A stretch of 64,000 nt of DNA from Planctomycetota bacterium. GTDB lineage: Bacteria > Planctomycetota > PLA2 > JAEUHO01. Made by a program: the position numbers and the translations under genes. The notes beneath the pieces were generated by a model. That model searched no databases. It had not been told where the DNA came from and saw only the letters and a program-made list of their open reading frames with translations. Shown here piece by piece: positions 1,841 to 23,993 of the stretch; positions within the stretch are counted from its first letter, which is position 1; each line of letters opens with the position of its first letter. The DNA lies in assembly GCA_965222115.1 (NCBI GenBank), contig CBDCTJ010000007.1:2144001-2208000 (forward strand). The letters are read 5' to 3'.

Positions 1841-3284
1841 TGAATGGGGGCTCGAAAGAGCCCAAACAAGCCAGGTTTAGTAACCACAATCGGCTTTTCG
1901 TGGCAGGGATGCTTCGGCGTCTTTGTTTGCGAAGAGCTAGTAGGTTCTTTACGAGTGGTGTGTGCGTGGGCATTTTTGTGTCTACGTAGACGCCAGATTC
2001 GTGATTCTCACGATTGGTTGAGGAACGTGAGTTCCGCAGTCAATTTGCAACAAACACTCGAGCCAAAGACTTAGTAACAATCAACGTTGCTTCATGAGGC
2101 GCAAGTCTCGTGGTGGCAGCGAAGGAAGTTTCTTGGTCAAGCTAATAAGGGTGTGTGGTGGATGCCTTGGCGCTGAGAGGCGATGAAGGACGTGGTCAGC
2201 TGCGATAAGCTTCGGGGAGGTGTAAACAACCTTTGATCCGGAGATCTCCGAATGCGGGAACGCGGTAGGGGTGAATTCCCTACCACTGCATGGTGAATGC
2301 ATAGCCATGTAGAGCCAACGGGGCGAACTGAAACATCTTAGTAACCCCAGGAATAGAAAGAAACATCGATGTCCGTAGTAGCGGCGAGCGAAATGGACAC
2401 AGCCCAAACCGTATGCATGTAAGTCTAGATGCGTTGTGTATGCGGTGTTGCGGGACCCATGTCTTGTAGATCTAGCTGCAGGCAGAAGTTACCAAAGCTA
2501 TGTGTAGCCGAAATACACTGGAAAGAATGCCGTAGAGGGTGATAGCCCCGTAGGCGAAACGCATAGCTCTTCTGATTGGGCACCCAAGTAGGGTCGGACA
2601 CGTGAAACCCGGCCTGAATCCGGGGGGACCACCCCCCAAGGCTAAATACTCCTCAGCGACCGATAGCGAACCAGTAGCGCGAGCGAAAATGGTGAAAAGA
2701 ACCCCTGTTAGGGGAGTGAAACAGTACCTGAAACCACATACCTACATTCTGTGGGAGCCCTATACATCTTCGGATGGATGGGTGACCGCGTACCTTTTGC
2801 ATAATGGGCCCGCGAGTTAATCTGTTCGGCAAGGTTAAGAGCTTCAGGCTCGGAGCCGTAGCGAAAGCGAGTACTAATAGTGCGTCCAAGTCGTGCGGAT
2901 TAGACCCGAAGATAAGTGATCTATCCATGGGCAGGATGAAGCGTCTGTAACAGGACGTGGAGGTCCGAACGGGTAAACGGTGAAAAGTTTTCCGATGACT
3001 TGTGGATAGGAGTAAAAGGCTTGCCAAACTTATCGATATCTGGTTCTCGCCGAAATGCCTTTAGGGGCAGCGTCGTGTTATAGCTACCGGGGGTAGAGAT
3101 ACTGATCGGGATAGGGGGGAGCAATCCTACCCTACCTAGCCAAACTCCGAATACCGGTGGCCTCTATCACGGCAGTGAGTCGTTGGGCGATAAGGTCCTC
3201 CGACGAGAGGGGAACAGCCCAGACCGTCAGCTAAGGTCCCCAATACATACTGAGTGCGAAAGGAAGTGGAAGTGCTAAGACAGC

Positions 3285-3338
<54 letters not shown>

Positions 3339-4176
3339 GTCGAGCATTTCTGCGCCGATAATAAACGGGACTAAGTATGTAACCGAAGCTACGGCTTTAT
3401 AACATCTGCGGATGCTATAAGGGGTAGGCGAGCGTAGGACGTTAGGTTGAAGCCGGACTGTGAAGACCGGTGGACGATGTTCTAGTGCGTATGCGGGCAC
3501 GAGTAACGAGAAATGCAGTGAGAATCTGCATCGCCGAAAACCCAAGGTTTCCTGGGCAAGGTAAATCCACCCAGGGTTAGTCGGACCCTAAGGCGAGGCC
3601 GAAAGGCGTAGTCGATGGATAACAGGTCAACATTCCTGTACCGGCTGGTATCCCGCAAGGGGTTGAGGAGGGGTGAAGAAGGCTAGGCACGCCAGCGTGT
3701 AGTAGTGCTGGTCCAAGGCAGTAGGGTTGAGCGTAGGCAAATCCGCGCTCTGCATACCTGAGAGCTGATGGGGAGACCGATTTTGAGTCGAAGGTGTTGA
3801 CGCCATGCTTCCGAGAAAAGCTTCGCAACATTGAGCCAGCCGTCCGTACCTCAAACCGACACAGGTGGGTGAGATGAGAATTCTAAGGCGCTCGAGAGAA
3901 CCATCGCTAAGGAACTCGGCAAAATAGCTCCGTAACTTCGGGAGAAGGAGTGCCCTCAGGGGTGATGAACTTCGCGTTCTGAGCTCAGGGGGGTCGCAGT
4001 GAAAGGTGGGCTGCAACTGTTTATCAAAAACACAGGTCTGTGCCAAGACGTAAGTCGATGTATACAGACTGACACTTGCTCAGTGACGGAAGGTTAAAGC
4101 AAGGGGTTAGCCCTCGGGCGAAGCTCCGAACCCAAGCCCCGTTAAACAGCGGCCGTAACTATGACGGTCCTAAGGT

Positions 4177-4928
4177 TAAGCGTTGCCCTTCGCCGGCTGC
4201 TTGTTTCAAGCATTTTGATTCAGGCGGTCGAGTGGCAGGCGGCGACCGTGGTGCCCGTTCGATCGGGAAGGAAGCCACGCAGCCTTAGTAAAATCGAACC
4301 ATATGCGGGAAACTCCTCCACAGCCGTCCGGTACTCGTGTTTTTCGTCAACGAAAGACGCAGTAACAATCCGGCGGACACGTTCATGAGTCCAGTACTTG
4401 TGGACAATGGGGACAATCCGCAGGGAAGGCCCTTTTGCAAGGGAACCCTCAGAGACTTTACGTTCGAGATCAGCCGATGAACCTTGACGCACAATGGATC
4501 GTAGGCTTCGTGGATGGCGAAGGCTGCTTTCATGTTGGGATTGCCAAGCACCCCGACATGACGGTGGGCCATCAGGTATTGCCTGAATTCGTCGTCGTGC
4601 AACACGAGCGCGATGTGCAGTTATTGCACGCATTCAAAGCATATTTCGGGTGCGGCGTGGTTCGTTCGAATCACGACGACCGAATGTGTTACCGCGTGCG
4701 AAAGCGCGAGCATCTGCTCACACACATCGTTCCGTTCTTCGTCAAGCACCCGCTCAAATCAAAGAAGCGCGTGGACTTTCAAAAGTTCCGCCGCGTCTTG
4801 CTCAAGATGGAAGCGGGCGATCATTTGACTGTCGATGGGCTGGAGGACATCCGGCGCATTGCACACCAGATGAATCGAGGTCGATCAAGATAAAGTCCGG
4901 CTTCGTTGGAAACAGCGGAGATGAACCG
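4177..4928 (+). mobile_element. Group I intron in 23S rRNA at E. coli position 1931
   Basis: Conserved CCTAAGGT^AGCGAAATTCC is split by 752 nt; exon ends in U and intron ends in G; core elements P (TATGCGGGAAAAC), Q (AATCCGCAGGGAAG), R (TCAGAGACTTTA), S (AAGATAAAGTCC). Confidence 0.95.
4477..4893 (+). CDS. Single-motif LAGLIDADG homing endonuclease (138 aa), intron-encoded
   Basis: MNLDAQWIVGFVDGEGCF motif; later FGCGVV and HIVPFFVKHPLKSKK typical of the family; located between R and S (P8 loop). Confidence 0.93.
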   Translation: MNLDAQWIVGFVDGEGCFHVGIAKHPDMTVGHQVLPEFVVVQHERDVQLLHAFKAYFGCGVVRSNHDDRMCYRVRKREHLLTHIVPFFVKHPLKSKKRVDFQKFRRVLLKMEAGDHLTVDGLEDIRRIAHQMNRGRSR

Positions 4929-4963
<35 letters not shown>

Positions 4964-5486
4964 TGAATAGTGTAATGACGGCCCAACTGTCTCAGCGATG
5001 GACTCGGTGAAACTGTAGTTGTGGTGAAAATACCATGGCCCCGCGGCTAGACGGAAAGACCCCGTGAACCTTTACTGTAGGCTAATATTGGCGTTAGGCA
5101 TCTCATGTGTAGCATAGCTGGGAGTCGTTATAACCAAGGGTCGCTAGATCCGAGGGAGACATCAGTGAAATACCAGCCTTGTGGTGTTTGACTTCTAACC
5201 TCATGCCGTGAATCCGGGTGAGGAACAGTGTTAGTTGGGCAGTTTGGCTGGGGAGGTCTCCTCCTAAAAGGTAACGGAGGAGCGCAAAGGTACCCTCAGT
5301 ACGGTTGGCAATCGTGCGTAGAGCGTAAAGGTATAAGGGTGCTTGACTGCGAGACCGATGGGTCGAGCAGAAACGAAAGTTGGCCTTAGTGATCCGGCGC
5401 TTCCGAGTGGAAGGGGCGTCGCTAATCAGACAAAAGGTACTCCGGGGATAACAGGCTGATCCCGCCTAAGAGTCCATATCGACGGC

Positions 5487-5532
<46 letters not shown>

Positions 5533-5533
5533 G

Positions 5534-5585
<52 letters not shown>

Positions 5586-6204
5586 CAGACCGACGTGAGT
5601 CAGGTCGGTCCCTATCTGCCGTGGGTGTAGGAAAATTGAGGAGATATGACTTTAGTACGAGAGGATTTAGTTGTACGAACCTCTGGTGTGCCGGTTATCG
5701 CGCTAGCGGTAGCGCCGGGTAGCTATGTTCGGAACGGATAAACGCTGAAAGCATCTAAGCGTGAAGCCTTCTCCAAAACGAGTTTTCCCTATCAGACCCC
5801 TTGAAGACCACGAGGTGATAGGCCAGGCGTGTAAGCACAGCAATGTGTTCAGCGGACTGGTACTAATCGGTCGATCGGCTTGACCATTTTCCCTTCTGTG
5901 GCATGTGGATGCATGGCGCGTCTTGTTCGGTGGTTTCCAGCGAATGAGCAATGCAGCCATCCCTCTTCGGAGGACGAACCTCTTCGGAAGACAATCCTCT
6001 TCGGAAGACCAAGCATGCACTGGAAGAGAAAACAAAGTCGGATAATTTGACGCGCCCATATGCAGCGCATGGGTTATCCGGTCTTTGCTCGAGCATGTCG
6101 TTTCGCGTGAGAGCGCGAGCGACGCGATGCAAATCGTGAGAAAATCATCTGGCGGAGTTGAAGCTCGGCACTGCGTGCCCTTGCCCCCATTCTTCCTTTT
6201 TATC

Positions 6205-6284
6205 AAAGGGGTGATCCCCCTTTCGCTCTTGACTTGAATTCGCTCGGCGAGGCCTCGCGTTCCAAGATCAAGAGCTAACCCCCC
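6205..6284. repeat. Structured REP-like repeat, copy B
   Basis: AAAGGGG-tgat-CCCCCTTT hairpin + GCTCTTGA-CTTGAA...TCCAAG-A-TCAAGAGC-TAACCCC. Confidence 0.8.
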
Positions 6285-6294
6285 GTTTTTAACT

Positions 6295-6371
6295 AGGGGC
6301 ATAGCCCCTTTCGCATCGGACTTGAATTTCGCTCAGCGTTGCTTCGCGTTCCAAGATCCGCTGCTAACCCC
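6295..6371. repeat. Structured REP-like repeat, copy C
   Basis: AGGGGC-ata-GCCCCT hairpin + GCATCGGA-CTTGAA...TCCAAG-A-TCCGCTGC-TAACCCC. Confidence 0.8.
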
Positions 6372-6382
6372 AAGTTAGTTTT

Positions 6383-6493
6383 TCCCGGTGCCCATACCTG
6401 AAGGGCCACACCCGATCCCATTCCGAACTCGACCGTTAAGCCTTCAGGGCCGATGATACTGCCGCAAGGTGGAAAAGTAGGTTAGTGCCGGGG
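6383..6493 (+). rRNA. rrf: 5S rRNA (short, ~110 nt)
   Basis: CACCCGATCCCATTCCGAACTCG, GCCGATGATACT, GGAAAAGTAGG; ends CCCGGTG / TGCCGGG pair. Confidence 0.96.
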
Positions 6494-6503
6494 TTTATTT
6501 GCG

Positions 6504-6552
6504 ATAGCCCAGTAGCCGTAGTGCTGCTGGGCTATTCTTTTTTTCTTTTTTT
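6504..6552 (+). terminator. Intrinsic terminator of the rRNA operon
   Basis: ATAGCCCAGTAGC-loop-GCTGCTGGGCTAT stem followed by a long T tract directly after the 5S. Confidence 0.85.
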
Positions 6553-6695
6553 GAAAGGGCGAAGCCCAATTTGCAGCGTTGCGGCCGGCACGTGCTTGCG
6601 GGGTAGGCTGCCCCGTCCATCTCTGGAGGATTGGATCTGTAGCTAGAAAGGGAAATTCGATGTCTTTGTGTGAATCTATGTGTAGAATCTCACAC

Positions 6696-6911
6696 ATGGC
6701 AACCAATCTCTCAATCGATCCGAATTTGATCAACGAGGCTCTCGCTGTCAGTGGTCAGAAAACAAAAAAGGCTGCCGTCACCCTGGCCCTCAAGGAATTC
6801 ATTGCACGAAGAAGGCAAGCGAGGCTCGTGGAGTTGTTTGGGGCTCTGAAGTGGGACGATTCGTACAACTACAAGCGCGATCGCTCGCGCGGTAATTCCG
6901 AAGAGAGTTAG
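6696..6911 (+). CDS. vapB: VapB-type antitoxin (type II TA)
   Basis: MATNLSIDPNLINEALAVSGQKTKKAAVTLALKEFIARR is a typical VapB N-terminus; imperfect inverted repeat GTGTGA...TCACAC over the promoter; directly upstream of a PIN gene. Confidence 0.88.
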   Translation: MATNLSIDPNLINEALAVSGQKTKKAAVTLALKEFIARRRQARLVELFGALKWDDSYNYKRDRSRGNSEES

Positions 6912-6913
6912 TT

Positions 6914-7318
6914 TTGGGGTACTTCGTCGATACCAGTGTTTGGTCACTGGCCTTTCGGCGCGACGTCATCGAGTCGTCCCCGCATGTCAAGCTGCTTTTG
7001 CAGCTACTCTCGGAGAGAGGCGTCGTCTTTTACACAGGACTTGTACTGCAGGAGTTGCTGCAGGGATTCGGTGGGCCACGCGCGTTCGACGAATTGCTTG
7101 AACGGTTCTCCGTGTTGCCGTGTCTCGAGCCGTCCCGTCAGGACTATGTGGGTGCAGCGAAGCTCCGCAACGTATGCCGCCGAAACGGCGTTCAAGTGGG
7201 AACGATCGATGCTCTGCTCGCTCAGCTGTGTCTTCGGCACGATCTCGAGATGCTCTCGACCGATGCAGACTTCTCAAACATGACCCCGCACTGCGGGATT
7301 CGGGTATGGGCACCCTGA
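6914..7318 (+). CDS. vapC: VapC PIN-domain ribonuclease toxin
   Basis: VDTSVW, LQELLQG, TIDALLAQLC, STDADF acidic PIN motifs; TTG start 2 nt after the vapB stop. Confidence 0.92.
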   Translation: MGYFVDTSVWSLAFRRDVIESSPHVKLLLQLLSERGVVFYTGLVLQELLQGFGGPRAFDELLERFSVLPCLEPSRQDYVGAAKLRNVCRRNGVQVGTIDALLAQLCLRHDLEMLSTDADFSNMTPHCGIRVWAP

Positions 7319-7496: not shown

Positions 7497-7573
7497 GGGC
7501 GTATAGCTCAGTCGGCTAGAGCGCCGCCCTGATAAGGCGGAGGTCCCTGGTTCAAGTCCAGGTACGCCCACCA
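7497..7573 (+). tRNA. tRNA-Ile(GAT), encoded CCA
   Basis: Acceptor GGGCGTA/TACGCCC, anticodon arm CCGCC-CT-GAT-AA-GGCGG, T loop TTCAAGT, ACCA end. Confidence 0.97.
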
Positions 7574-19455: not shown

Positions 19456-21057
19456 CTACTTGCTTTGTGTAGTCGCATGCGACGTACGGCCAAACCGACG
19501 AATACTCCGCTCGCGCCAGAGTCGCGCAACCCGCTGTCGAAGCACCTCAATCGGATTGTGTATATCCGTCAATCGGGCAGCAGTCGTAAAGTCGATTGAC
19601 TCCAGATTGATGGGTGTTGGCCACTCAATGTCCATTTCGCTTGCCCGGTCGCGACTCGATTCGTCTTCAATCGGGCCGTTACTCGCAAATAGCGTCATGG
19701 GAGCGATCGTGGCGCCTCGATCCGGTGCGAAGAGTTGGACATGGGCGAACGATGCCATTGCCGCTGCCAAAATGGCTCGGACGGCGTCGTCGTGGGGCTG
19801 CCCGATTAAGTTGACTGCGAGCAGTCCCTCGGACGTTAGTCGCATCGCCATTCGATGAAAGGCCTGTTCGCTGAACAGATGTGCGGGCAGCAGCTCACCC
19901 CGGTACACATCCAAAACGATGAGCGAGTAGGTGTCGGATGTTCGATTTAAAAATCGCCGACCGTCTTCGATGGTTACAGGAAGGCTCAAGTCAAAGTGTT
20001 TGCGCGCCAGGCTTACAACGTGAGGGTCGATCTCCACGGCCTGCACCTGCCAATCCGCGTCAATGAGCGCGTTTGGAAAGGCGCCGCCACCCAATCCGAT
20101 TACCAAAGCGCGTCCTGGTTCGGGGCGCATCCAGCGCGCGAGTTCAAGTGCATTGCCGGATGCGAGCAAGGCGCCGGGTGGAGGAGGACCGAGTGAAATC
20201 AACGGCGCCGATGTTTGCAGCACACCATCCACGAGCAAGTAGCGCGAGACGTCATCTTCGAGCACTTCGTGACGCCCATAGAAACTGTCCACGCGTTCAA
20301 TGCGTTGCAGTCCGAATGCACCTGACGACGCGTCGCTTGCGTCCGTTGCATCGAGCGTATGGTGGCAACAGAACCAGGTAACACCCGCGAGGCACATGAG
20401 CACAAGCATGACGACACGCATTCGTGTGCGTGTGATGCTGGACGCAATCAGGGCGGTGGCGCCAATCCCCACGACAAGCGACAGCGTGGCTCCGATCAAC
20501 CCCTGTTGCGGAATGAGGTAGAGACCCGCGGCGAGTGCTCCACCCGCACTACCAATCGTTCCCACGGCGTAGGTGGCGCCCGCGGCGCGACCGGATGCAA
20601 TGCCCGTGTCGCTATATGCCTGGACTAGTCGTGGCGACATCATGCCCCACGCAATGAGTGACGGCGCGAGCAGCGCCGACGCAACGAGGCCGAGTGAGGG
20701 TGGATCTGCCGCGTCTGCATTTGCAACGTAGGCCATCGCGGCCGCCATGAACGCGCCGCCAACGGCAAGGCACGTCATGGCAATCATGAGCGAGTGTCTT
20801 GGCTCACGACGACGCGAACTCGGGCGGCCGAGCCAAGCACCGAGCGCGAGTGATGCCAACGAGATGGCCAATACCACAGCCCAGACTTGCAGACCGCTTC
20901 CATAGAGCGGCGCCAGCCAACCTGCCGCCATGATTTCTTGCATGAGTACGGCGGCACCACCAACCGCCGCAAGGAGCAGCGCTGCCACGCGCACAGATCG
21001 GGATCCTGACCCCTGCGGGGCGTTTGCATCGTGCCGGCTCATGGGGCCATTGGACAC
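19456..21057 (-). CDS. Fused membrane domain / spermidine-synthase-like methyltransferase
   Basis: Multiple N-terminal TMs (AGATYAVGTIGS), then ALVIGLGGG, VEIDP, EDGRRFL, IVLDVY SAM-fold motifs. Confidence 0.9.
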   Translation of the reverse strand: MSNGPMSRHDANAPQGSGSRSVRVAALLLAAVGGAAVLMQEIMAAGWLAPLYGSGLQVWAVVLAISLASLALGAWLGRPSSRRREPRHSLMIAMTCLAVGGAFMAAAMAYVANADAADPPSLGLVASALLAPSLIAWGMMSPRLVQAYSDTGIASGRAAGATYAVGTIGSAGGALAAGLYLIPQQGLIGATLSLVVGIGATALIASSITRTRMRVVMLVLMCLAGVTWFCCHHTLDATDASDASSGAFGLQRIERVDSFYGRHEVLEDDVSRYLLVDGVLQTSAPLISLGPPPPGALLASGNALELARWMRPEPGRALVIGLGGGAFPNALIDADWQVQAVEIDPHVVSLARKHFDLSLPVTIEDGRRFLNRTSDTYSLIVLDVYRGELLPAHLFSEQAFHRMAMRLTSEGLLAVNLIGQPHDDAVRAILAAAMASFAHVQLFAPDRGATIAPMTLFASNGPIEDESSRDRASEMDIEWPTPINLESIDFTTAARLTDIHNPIEVLRQRVARLWRERSIRRFGRTSHATTQSK

Positions 21058-21204
21058 GCCTCAACTCGCTGAGTTCACAATTGCGTGCCTAACGCGAAGG
21101 GCGGCGAACAAGGGACTTTCGACGAGGTCGAAGCGCGTAACGCTGTACCCAGTCCGCATACGCTATAGGAGCGCCCGAGACCTGGGGCGAAGTCGGAGTC
21201 CTCT

Positions 21205-22332
21205 ATGCGTATGCCATGTTTCGTCGGGGCGTTTGCTGCGGCGTGTCTACTTTTTGCGTTGCCCGCCACACTGCGTGCCGAAGAGGGTCAGGGGCCCGCC
21301 GATGACAACGCGGTGCTTGCCGATCTCAATCTGGGCGATCATTGGTTTGGTCCCGAGATTTCGCATAAAGACCTCAAGGGCAAAGTAGTGCTCTTTGAAA
21401 TGTGGGGCCACTGACCGGGTTGCAAGGCGATTACGCCGCATTTGGTCAGTTTGGCCAAGCGACTCGAAGGTCGACCCTTCCATCTCATTGCTAGCTTTTG
21501 CCAGCGGGGTGAACGAGACACTACGGTTGCCTACATCAAGTCCAAGGGGCTCGAAGCGAACACGCCCAATTTGACCGTCACGTACCAAGGGCGGCATGCC
21601 GGCATCAAAGGTAATGGGTATGTGCCCTACTACGCGGTATTCGATCACCGCGGCAACCTTGCCCATCATCACATGTGTGGTCAGTGGCACGGTGGCGATG
21701 GACTCAAGATGATCGAGTGGGTGGACAAACTGCTGGAAGATGCGCCTGGTATCTATCTCGGCGACGAGCCCTACGAGAAAATTGCTGCGATTGCGAAGCA
21801 AGTCAGCAAAAAGAAGAGTCTTGCGGGTGCCGTGAAGAAACTCGACAAGGGGATGGCCTCGGAAGACACCGACGCCGAAACCAAGACCGAAATGAAGCGA
21901 TTGTACGACGCGCTCACCGCCTGGCGCGACGGGGCTATGAAGCGCGCCGTAGATGCAATGGCCACCGAGCCGTCCGACGTCGTGGTGCGCCTGACGCAAT
22001 TAAGTAGGGATTTCAAGGGCTCGAGCCTCGGTGCCGATGTGGACGAGCGACTGAGGACCATTAAGGCGAGCAAGGAACTCAAGACATCCATCGCCATTGC
22101 GAAGAAACGTGACAAGATCTTGAAGGGCCTAGCGAAACTCAAGCCCTGCAAGTCGTGCAAGCGCAAGGGCTCTTCCGCGGCGCGAAAGGCGTGTGCCGCG
22201 TGCCGCAAGGAGAACGCAAAGGCTTTCGAGCGCGCTGAGAAGAAGTGGAAGGCGCTCATTGAGGAGGCCGCGGACCTGCCCATCCAAGCCACGCTTGAAA
22301 AGGTACTCCCCCGGATCCAGGGCAAAAAGTAG
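21205..22332 (+). CDS. Exported TlpA/redoxin-like protein with in-frame UGA (putative selenocysteine, UxxC)
   Basis: ORFs 21205-21414 and 21442-22332 are in the same frame; read-through gives DLKGKVVLFEMWGH-U-PGC-KAITPHL, with TGA at the first Cys of the CxxC motif. Confidence 0.85.
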
Positions 22333-22646
22333 TCGATTTCGGCGATCGTCCGAACGCCCAAACACACTCTGGTGACAATACTACGGCCTACTGTTCGTCG
22401 CGGGGGCGGTATGCCTCTGCTCGTGCGGCCACTCGCGACCACTTAAGAGGAACCGAGGGACCGAGGGAGTTCCTTCATGGCGGTGGGCTGTGCGCAATTC
22501 ATTCGGCGTAAGGACCGATGTAAGCAGTTAGGCCCGGATTCGTTGGCATGAGGCGAACGCTGAACGGGCAAGGTGGCTGAAGAGGCATGAGGGCGATCGG
22601 GCGTGAGCGTGATCTCGCTGCCCGCGAGCCGAAAAAGGAGGACCGC

Positions 22647-23300
22647 GTGCGGTACCTATTGAATACGCGTTTCATGAGCTCATCGATGGCGATCGCGGGC
22701 TTGATGTCTGCTGCGGTCTTGTTTTCCGGCTGTATTTCTCAGTCGTCAGGCCCCGCCACGCGATCCACACCCGCTGGCACCATTGAGTCTTTTAAGAAGG
22801 CCGCCGCTCGCGGCGACCGTCGTGCCGAATGGGACATTCTGAGCCCCAACTTCAAGAAGCGTTTGAGTCGTCAAGCCGGTCGTAACGTGGACTTGGCCGA
22901 CTACATCACGGCGCGCAATGCCCTTCGCAGCGATCCTCAAGTGCGCCTCGCCGAGTCCATGCTCAAGACAGCCAAGGTCCAGCGCACGGAGATGCAGGGC
23001 GAAAACTCGGCCTACCTCACCATTACAGCGGGCCCCCTCGGTGTAAAGAAGACCGCGCGCATTCACATGGTGCGCATGCAGCGATGGGAGCTTCATGTTG
23101 CCGGCGACGACGAGCCCTATTCTGGCATCGTCGGCGATTCATCCTCTACCTACCGACGTAATGCCGATGGCGGCTACACGGTTTCCGGTAGTGGTGGCTT
23201 CAGCGAGACCTTCCGCCGCGACGAGATTCGCGACTTCAAGACCAGCACCAAGTGGTATGTAGACGACCTCGGTGGCATGGAACGACAGTTCATGCAGTAG
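22647..23300 (+). CDS. Hypothetical lipoprotein
   Basis: AAGGAGG SD + GTG; lipobox-like FSGC after a hydrophobic stretch. Confidence 0.75.
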   Translation: MRYLLNTRFMSSSMAIAGLMSAAVLFSGCISQSSGPATRSTPAGTIESFKKAAARGDRRAEWDILSPNFKKRLSRQAGRNVDLADYITARNALRSDPQVRLAESMLKTAKVQRTEMQGENSAYLTITAGPLGVKKTARIHMVRMQRWELHVAGDDEPYSGIVGDSSSTYRRNADGGYTVSGSGGFSETFRRDEIRDFKTSTKWYVDDLGGMERQFMQ

Positions 23301-23351: not shown

Positions 23352-23993
23352 ATGCCACTTGAATCAATCGAGCTACCCATCGACGCGCCGCGGTTTCGCC
23401 GCACGCCGCCGCCCGAAGTCGTGTCGCTTCTCCGCGACGCGGACGAGTTCGTACACAACTTCGTAGAAGATCGACTCGACGACCCCATTGCTGGCTATGT
23501 CCCGTGTGACTTTCAGTTGGCGTATTTCGCGTTGCGGCACGTTGTCGAGCGTCGGTTGATGCTTGGCAGTACATTTTGCGAGTGGGGGAGCGGGCTGGGC
23601 ATTGTTTCCTGCCTGGCGGCTTGTCTCGACTTTGACGCGTCAGGCATCGAGATCGAGGGCGAACTTGTCGAGGCATCGACGGCTTTTGCCCGCGACCACG
23701 AAATCGTCGTTGAGTTGGTTCAAGGGAGCTTTATTCCGCCCGGTTCGGACGACTGCCTCGACGACGTGGGGGACTTTGCGTGGTTGCTTCCCGGTGGCCA
23801 CGACGGTCATGCGCTGCTCGATCTGGACGTGGACGACATCGATGTGGTCTTCGCCTACCCGTGGCCCGGTGAAGAGGACATCGTATTTGATCTCTTCAAT
23901 CATCACGCAGCGCCCGGCGCGCTTCTGCTCACGTACCACGGGATGGATTCGATGCGCCTGCAGCGAAAGCGACGGGCTAAGGGGCGTCGCTAG
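23352..23993 (+). CDS. Class I SAM-dependent methyltransferase-like protein
   Basis: FCEWGSGLG motif I, GIEIE motif II, VVFAYPWPGE. Confidence 0.85.
   Translation: MPLESIELPIDAPRFRRTPPPEVVSLLRDADEFVHNFVEDRLDDPIAGYVPCDFQLAYFALRHVVERRLMLGSTFCEWGSGLGIVSCLAACLDFDASGIEIEGELVEASTAFARDHEIVVELVQGSFIPPGSDDCLDDVGDFAWLLPGGHDGHALLDLDVDDIDVVFAYPWPGEEDIVFDLFNHHAAPGALLLTYHGMDSMRLQRKRRAKGRR

Follow-up and report, generated by a model that had tools for sequence, protein, structure and literature searches.

What does a single in-frame TGA codon do inside a gene that is otherwise uninterrupted? The question is raised by a 64,000-nucleotide stretch of DNA from a Planctomycetota bacterium (contig CBDCTJ010000007.1; the whole stretch is referred to here as the window), in which the frame from 21205 to 22332 is interrupted by one codon only, TGA at 21412-21414. 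We suggest that 21205-22332 is very probably one gene encoding an exported thioredoxin-like enzyme with a selenocysteine (Sec) in its active site. In its full form, to which we assign a probability of roughly 0.85, the explanation is that a 375-residue selenoprotein, exported or membrane-anchored and facing the periplasm, is read by means of an RNA hairpin and acts as an oxidoreductase; that we are dealing with a real selenoprotein gene, the particulars left aside, we hold with slightly greater confidence.

An open reading frame (ORF) of 69 amino acids (21205-21414) leads up to the TGA and the same frame is then open to the TAG at 22330-22332, in agreement with the first-pass annotation of this DNA, which had noted two ORFs in one frame parted by a single TGA. 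Read through, the peptide around this codon is ...LKGKVVLFEMWGH-U-PGC-KAITPHL (in a longer form, GKVVLFEMWGH-U-PGC-KAITPHLV). The codon occupies the first position of a thioredoxin-type CxxC motif, as that annotation also held: relatives have Cys at this position and the codon aligns on the CPPC of PDB chain 28db_A. In the alignment of locus DNA, full-length in-frame homology to the window gene is found in 24 further genes.

Predicted proteins carry the mark of this codon. When the read-through sequence (Cys in place of Sec) was compared with 5.8 billion predicted proteins, 107 homologues were returned, the named sources among them being proteins of Planctomycetota metagenome-assembled genomes (MAGs). 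All except one begin only past the TGA column: 53 have their first residue at the codon that immediately follows the TGA, 37 start within residues 72-84 and 16 start further on, and the prediction that standard annotation would split such a gene is borne out by these 106 entries. That nearly all predicted ORFs start just past one and the same column points to a conserved in-frame stop codon as the cause. The sole homologue that spans the column, P0102, appears to be a redox-dead paralogue because T-T-G-S replaces U-x-G-C and HHHMCG is missing.

The codon itself can be followed in genomic DNA. One scan of genome contigs gave 57 matching stretches; a relative is encoded by 28 of them (L001-L028), and these were translated in the frame of the match. 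TGA lies at exactly the same column in 25 of the 28 related loci, in most of them within WGSU[VI]GC (the window has WGHUPGC where relatives have WGSUVGC), and the assemblies that carry it reach down to about 33% protein identity. One locus (L019) contains a second, tandem copy of the gene, also with TGA (copies at 4881-5924 and 6001-7062 of one contig). Cys, encoded by TGC, is present at the column in L022, from the complete genome of Rohdeia mirabilis Pla163, and in L026, from a Pirellulaceae MAG; L027 (25% identity) has no such motif and neither TGA nor TGC at the column. Conservation extends across the codon. On its 5' side a basic and hydrophobic N-terminus, often with [DE]EGQG, is followed by LNLGxYWYG and GKVVLxEIWGS, and G49, G59, V61 and G68 are invariant in 26 alignment rows; in the alignment of 25 rows made up of locus genes and the window gene, residue 70 is Sec or Cys in every row and Cys73 is present in every row.

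An exhaustive profile search widened the sample to 1369 cluster representatives at E <= 1e-3 (85 at E <= 1e-30), the best 150 of which were classified. Among the closest 85, the column is spanned by 21 (13 with CxxC, 3 with SxxC and 5 other) and the remaining 64 start downstream of it (37 within 14 residues, 15 later and 12 alignment-gap cases that are also downstream); CxxC is found in 43 of the next 65. We built a quick maximum-likelihood tree of 37 rows, 24 with Sec, 10 with Cys, 2 with Ser and 1 with Thr, and used four CPPC-type proteins as its root; not included were three partial loci (L002, L024 and L028), the distant L027 and the majority of the database proteins. In this tree the Cys, Ser and Thr forms are scattered within well-supported Sec clades: L022 is grouped with three Sec genes at a Shimodaira-Hasegawa-like approximate likelihood ratio (SH-aLRT) of 97, P0116 and P0102 are grouped with eight Sec genes at a support of 99, and the supported branches require at least four changes of state.

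If the codon is read as Sec, the signal would be expected close by in the mRNA as a selenocysteine insertion sequence (SECIS). We aligned 27 TGA-bearing sequences, gapless over a stretch that reaches 6 nt 5' and 57 nt 3' of the TGA and with no indels between the UGA and a hairpin at 21442-21458 (hairpin 2); this hairpin, at columns 37-53, is the one helix of the RNAalifold consensus. By explicit count it is paired in 96.8% of cells; the outermost pair (37:53) is UA in 16 sequences and CG in 6, and 5 sequences do not form it. As five-mers the loops read AGUUU (11), GGUCU (9), AGGUU (5), AGUCU (1) and CGUGC (1), and G44, the second loop position, never varies and has U or G after it in all 27. 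The rules for bacterial SECIS elements in PMC13188914 call for a loop of 3-9 nt and an upper stem of 4-16 bp (legend to Fig. 2), a G in the first two loop positions, commonly as N1-G-[G/U]-N-N2 with N1 and N2 paired, a UGA-to-loop distance of 16-37 nt and a minimum free energy of <= -7.5 kcal/mol. Hairpin 2, with a stem of 6-7 bp, a loop of 3-5 nt with the sequence (A)GUU(U) and a loop start 33-34 nt past the UGA, agrees with four of these rules as they are given there and is borderline in energy.

Synonymous sites provide a stronger argument for a SECIS than covariation does. In 25 rows backed by DNA (P0102, which has no DNA, was omitted), the test covered 67 columns at which a degenerate amino acid is conserved. 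Mean codon entropy at codons 77-87 is 0.61 bits, compared with 1.44 elsewhere (standard deviation 0.28, minimum 0.83), and a permutation test for the lowest mean over such a run of codons gives p=0.00027. The codons are fixed, or nearly so, for Val81 (GTC, 23/23), Ala84 (GCC, 25/25), Thr77 (ACG, 23/25) and Leu87 (CTC, 24/25), and Leu80 and Leu83 are encoded by TTG or CTG only, though CTC is the commonest codon at most other Leu columns. On these grounds, we consider hairpin 2 likely to be the SECIS. Its 13-nt motif occurs once per locus, in this gene only, and revealed no further selenoprotein genes. A wider look for frames interrupted by TGA in the window was dropped as too unspecific, with 225 candidates.

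Either of two hairpins had at first been held to be the possible SECIS. Both are present where they had been placed, but only hairpin 2 is conserved and fits the rules. That the SECIS role falls instead to hairpin 1 (21421-21440), or to a UGA-containing stem, composite or long, is conceivable and in our judgment unlikely. Hairpin 1 has a GC-rich core of 4 bp, the nearly fixed ACG of Thr77 and the GCG of Ala75, where this residue is present in the aligned sequences, would be in keeping with such a role, and the hairpin is part of a long stem in the minimum-energy fold of the window. However, it is paired in 68.9% of cells of the 27-sequence alignment, shifts register in sequences encoding RQITP and is absent from the RNAalifold consensus; moreover, it fails the bacterial SECIS rules because its loop starts 15 nt past the UGA and the loop, AUUA in the window, lacks a G at positions 1 and 2. 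The long stem, for its part, requires CCG after the UGA, which is found only in the window and in L028. The folding energy of the window sequence itself is poor evidence. An 81-nt segment folds with z = -3.89, but the structure is the UGA-containing stem, a competitor of hairpin 2. For the 51 nt starting at the UGA, z is -1.44 and 17 of 200 shuffled sequences fold equally well; in five relatives, UGA plus 50 nt gives z-scores of -0.35 to -1.41, so that single-sequence folding is not discriminating.

At the protein level, the read-through sequence is predicted to form a continuous fold across the codon. The AlphaFold2 model, made with a 26-row alignment (predicted local distance difference test, pLDDT, 88.8; predicted template modelling score, pTM, 0.82), begins with an N-terminal helix of low confidence, which is followed by a thioredoxin-fold domain (residues ~40-182) and an all-helical part, and the strand that precedes residue 70 (61-67) and the helix that follows it (78-86) belong to one domain. 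Foldseek returned 115 matches in the PDB at E <= 0.001 with aligned lengths of 140-204, and all those listed are thioredoxin-type folds. The top matches are ResA, TlpA-like, CcmG and DsbF chains with template modelling (TM) scores of 0.6-0.7 on the target, which upholds the TlpA-like fold originally assigned; glutathione peroxidases rank lower, and a glutathione peroxidase-like reading was not supported as family membership. A sequence profile search of the PDB gave 28db_A, 'Redoxin domain protein', at E 3e-11 with its CPPC on U-x-G-C, followed by TlpA, ResA and DipZ. Pro141 (21625-21627), invariant in 25/25 rows, opens strand 141-146 and is the putative cis-Pro of the thioredoxin fold.

Combining the RNA and protein data, we suggest a model in which the ribosome reads the UGA at 21412-21414 as selenocysteine, SelB with Sec-tRNA(Sec) would be recruited by a stem-loop inside the coding sequence, most likely hairpin 2, and the N-terminal hydrophobic segment would export or anchor the protein. 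In this model, Sec70 would be the attacking selenolate in the nucleophilic first position of U-x-G-C, the CxxC site of thioredoxin-fold enzymes, Cys73 would be its resolving partner, and the protein would act as a selenol/thiol-disulfide oxidoreductase on an envelope substrate. The N-terminus, MRMPCFVGAFAAACLLFALPATLRA followed by EEGQG, has the form of the signal peptide that had been noted, as judged by sequence form only (a basic start, about 17 hydrophobic residues and L-R-A), and a basic start followed by a hydrophobic stretch recurs in all 25 rows (alignment A2). Disulfide oxidoreductase chemistry as such we regard as the probable activity, with some reserve.

The loop that follows the last strand of a thioredoxin fold sits beside the active site. 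In the window protein this loop, HHHMCGQWHGGDG, is rich in His and together with the all-helical C-terminal domain it would probably shape or dock the substrate, H156, H162 and GGDG being the residues to consider. Conservation among the 25 rows is high for H156 (24), H162 (25), G164 (25) and D165 (24) and lower for C158 (15); elsewhere in the protein H93 (25), H131 (24) and H148 (23) are conserved and C99 is present in 15. The motif HHHMCGQWHG singled out by the first-pass annotation is present at residues 154-163, but its Cys is variable, H156 and H162 being the conserved residues.

Alternatively, the selenoprotein may serve in metal handling, with Sec70, Cys73 and His156/His162, and Cys158 where it is present, forming a Sco-like site for copper or another metal. 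This is a live alternative because of the His/Met-rich loop, albeit an improbable one. Copper centres are serviced by TlpA-type proteins, and in Sco proteins copper is bound by two Cys and one His about 90 residues downstream; in the present family five His (H93, H131, H148, H156 and H162) are nearly invariant, Met157 lies among them, and the His-rich loop is a peculiarity of the Sec subfamily that the distant CPPC-type relatives lack. Against a metal site stand the presence of Cys158 in 15/25 rows only, a spacing of the CxxC type rather than CxxxC, the lack of copper genes nearby in the window and the lack of an SCO1-SenC match in Pfam at E <= 1. Membership of the Sco group itself is not supported, given the UxxC spacing and the Pfam result, the distance from the motif to His156/His162 alone being Sco-like. 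More speculative still, and even less probable, would be a new envelope selenoenzyme or seleno-metallochaperone, more than a selenium form of TlpA, in which Sec70, Cys73, H156, M157, C158 and H162 make up a selenolate site for metal or substrate and the all-alpha domain is a new docking module; if true, such proteins would be widespread in uncultured Planctomycetota and overlooked because annotation truncates the family.

A number of observations speak against the selenoprotein oxidoreductase that we favor, and they concern the RNA, the protein and the genomic surroundings. (i) Hairpin 2 alone is weak, its energy being -7.0 kcal/mol for the window and between -5.0 and -10.6 (mean -7.85) across the family. 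Covariation is thin: one pair alone changes on both sides, and whole-structure covariation is 0.115 compared with 0.092 in shuffled alignments, with 8/500 shuffles reaching 0.115 and slid registers giving 0.110. The minimum-energy fold of the window is the competing long stem, in which the 5' arm of hairpin 2 has the region of the UGA as its pairing partner. Conservation of the hairpin is partly explained by the conserved peptide LVxLAK, and of the Cys forms L026 retains the stem, while in L022 it is degraded. No Rfam SECIS family was found in the whole window or, at E <= 10, in 21300-21600, only a chance-level match to naRNA4 (E 3.7). (ii) For the TlpA/ResA-like group (cd02966, PF08534, PF00578), the protein stays below the cut-offs of Pfam (AhpC-TSA, 19.6 bits vs 26; Redoxin, 13.7 vs 26.6) and of NCBIfam (TlpA NF047696, 24.5 bits vs 230; ResA NF002854, 14.9 vs 170). 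Export, whether by a cleaved signal peptide or with the segment kept as an anchor, is suggested by what the N-terminal sequence looks like, and the place of the His-rich loop near the active site is suggested by the topology of the fold. (iii) No tRNA-Sec was found in the 64-kb window or in the flanks of the 28 loci, and no Sel-type Pfam domain (selA, selB, selD) in the 44 window ORFs; the proteins of the locus flanks were not scanned for such domains.

That no Sec machinery is seen in 64 kb, and that TGA is the least used stop codon, could be taken to mean that a standard amino acid is inserted at the UGA, either in a reassigned code (Trp or Gly) or by near-cognate read-through. We regard this as very improbable. 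TGA is not reassigned in this organism because it ends 5 of the 25 Pfam-supported ORFs in the window (TAG ends 13 and TAA 7); furthermore, the column alternates with Cys specifically, and does so at the first position of CxxC, and a conserved stem-loop with fixed synonymous sites lies at SECIS distance. Least credible of all is that the TGA is a true stop, in a pseudogene, by sequencing error or between two genes for a 69-aa peptide and a 296-aa protein: the frame is indeed split under translation table 11, gene finders call the downstream ORF only and a TTG start is available at 21442, but the same TGA recurs in 25 of 28 independent assemblies of protein identity down to ~33%, the upstream frame and its sequence are conserved, relatives have Cys, and the thioredoxin fold spans the codon within one modelled domain. 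The exported 375-aa selenoprotein with a UxxC motif proposed from the outset is supported by the conserved TGA, the Cys forms, the conservation on both sides and the constrained stem-loop.

Table. Features of the selenoprotein gene, in positions of the window
Feature	Position	Strand	Details and basis
GGAG, Shine-Dalgarno-like motif	21195..21198	+	6 nt 5' of the ATG; read from the sequence
Complete selenoprotein coding sequence, 375 aa with TGA as Sec	21205..22332	+	ATG at 21205; stop TAG at 22330-22332
Putative N-terminal signal peptide or anchor, residues 1-25, MRMPCFVGAFAAACLLFALPATLRA	21205..21279	+	Sequence form
TlpA/ResA-like thioredoxin-fold domain, residues ~40-182	21322..21750	+	Foldseek, PDB profile search
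U-P-G-C redox motif	21412..21423	+	Sec70, TGA 21412-21414; Cys73, TGC 21421-21423; TGA in 25/28 loci
Hairpin 1, TGC-aa-GGCG-atta-CGCC-GCA (core GGCG-AUUA-CGCC)	21421..21440	+	Probably not the SECIS
Hairpin 2, UUGGUCA-GUU-UGGCCAA, candidate bacterial SECIS	21442..21458	+	Sole RNAalifold helix
His-rich loop HHHMCGQWHGGDG, residues 154-166, after the last thioredoxin strand	21664..21702	+	Conservation in 25 rows
HHHMCGQWHG motif, residues 154-163	21664-21693	+	Read-through sequence
All-alpha C-terminal domain, residues 183-375	21751..22329	+	AlphaFold2 model
Variable insert with CKSC (315-318) and CAAC (330-333)	22147..22203	+	Cys315, Cys318, Cys330 and Cys333

The C-terminal part of the protein sets it apart from solved structures. 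Modelled alone by AlphaFold2, the domain reaches a pLDDT of 97.2; in the PDB Foldseek found 0 matches at E <= 0.001 (best E 0.53, TM 0.2-0.3), the domain belongs to no Pfam family, and a comparison of the ORF part under translation table 11 with the ESM Atlas gave no match >= 0.9. Judging from the model, this is a confidently predicted fold without a solved analogue. The pair CKSC...CAAC that had been pointed out in this region is present, but it lies in a variable insert and is not family-wide: all four Cys are found in 10/25 rows, and in the other rows they are deleted or replaced. The protein had also been described as having an unrecognised architecture. The layout of a thioredoxin domain with a helical tail is not confined to this gene, being also found in a wider family with the motif WGxNCPPC.

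Proteins of this WGxNCPPC family, with ~335-350 aa (P0244, P0240), are together with 28db_A the closest Cys relatives, and they share with the window protein the block xGxHxxGPxxxxxDLKGKVV...WG. The proteins of 335-350 aa match the profile through the helical tail to about position 360 at E 1e-22 to 1e-36; they differ in having CPPC or CGPC, one extra residue before the motif and no His-rich loop. 28db_A has 161 residues only and matches profile positions 32-97. TlpA, ResA, CcmG and DsbF (1jfu, 1su9, 2b1k, 4pq1) resemble the window protein in fold (Foldseek probability 1.0), in the place of the motif and in having an N-terminal export or anchor segment; unlike it, they have Cys for Sec, show 15-21% identity and lack both the helical domain and the HHHMCGxYHGGDG loop. 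Among selenoprotein models, NCBIfam NF041054 (WAxxUGC_long) describes a ResA/TlpA-like selenoprotein of similar length (354 model positions) and matches residues 28-110 weakly. The score is 15.7 bits vs a cut-off of 300, and the motif is W-G-x-U-x-G-C here and WAxxUGC there.

The first-pass annotation had noted that UxxC is common in redoxin selenoproteins, and Table 1 of PMC13188914 agrees: among its 119 prokaryotic selenoprotein families are UxxC TlpA-like (cd02966) and redoxin families, the latter including 'Redoxin family protein' (PF08534, UxxC), and one comparable entry traces to four Sargasso Sea sequences (PMC1088965). As described in that table, these families have in common with the present one a thioredoxin fold, a single Sec in the first position of UxxC and the status of a prediction from comparative genomics only. 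What distinguishes the window protein, with the comparison made by description only, is the ~190-residue all-alpha tail and the His-rich loop. No NCBIfam selenoprotein model is matched at its cut-off by the window protein. Because UxxC selenoproteins with a thioredoxin fold are known and no NCBIfam cut-off is reached, the protein is a new member, and possibly forms a new subfamily, of this known class, the catalogued families having been compared by description only; the family may be identical to one of the entries in Table 1 of PMC13188914. Literature searches turned up no paper describing this family or the use of Sec in Planctomycetes/Planctomycetota, and in the available text of PMC1794560 the phylum is named only for having too few genomes; a term search within PMC2398784 and PMC5029168 gave no match.

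Miscalling of selenoprotein genes is systematic, and here the consequence is that 106/107 family entries start without a signal peptide, without the first strand and without the catalytic residue. Names such as 'TlpA family protein disulfide reductase' or 'hypothetical protein' are given to some of the truncated entries, and recognition of the family corrects these annotations. It also adds evidence for Sec decoding in many uncultured Planctomycetota. Natural Sec/Cys pairs (L028 vs L026; L020/L021/L025 vs L022) could show why an envelope redox enzyme prefers selenium. The first of these pairs comes from two Pirellulaceae MAGs, with Cys in L026 and TGA in the related L028; in both, a TraB/PrgY/GumN domain precedes the redoxin domain in a fusion (L026 1003-3297, with E 3.8e-45 for TraB/PrgY/GumN; L028 4873-6237).

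No gene neighbourhood is shared by the family as a whole. In seven loci of one subclade, the immediate upstream neighbour on the same strand is a gene for a tricorn-type protease of ~1090 aa with Tricorn_C1, PDZ_Tricorn and Peptidase_S41 (L008 2621-5899, with the same position in L012, L013, L014, L017, L018 and L019); it is missing in the window. There, the upstream neighbour is divergent (19456-21057, - strand) and encodes 533 aa with an N-terminal half that is hydrophobic and resembles a membrane protein and a weak spermidine-synthase-like domain (E 1.3e-5), and the neighbours at 22587-23300 and 23352-23993 match no Pfam family.

Further observations concern the window at large. TAG is the commonest stop codon of the Pfam-supported ORFs, which is unusual for a genome of 58% G+C. 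The rRNA operon has a 16S-23S spacer (1556-2134) in which no tRNA was found and a 23S rRNA gene (2135-5887) that spans 3753 nt compared with 2925 positions of the model. Within the 23S rRNA gene lies a group I intron-like match (4197-4919; 46.6 bits with a gathering score of 50, E 7.5e-10), and the intron ORF (4435-4893, + strand) encodes a LAGLIDADG homing-endonuclease domain (E 5.8e-24). The 5S rRNA gene is immediately followed by a VapB/PIN (VapC) toxin-antitoxin pair (6579-7315), and this in turn by tRNA-Ile(GAU) (7497-7573).

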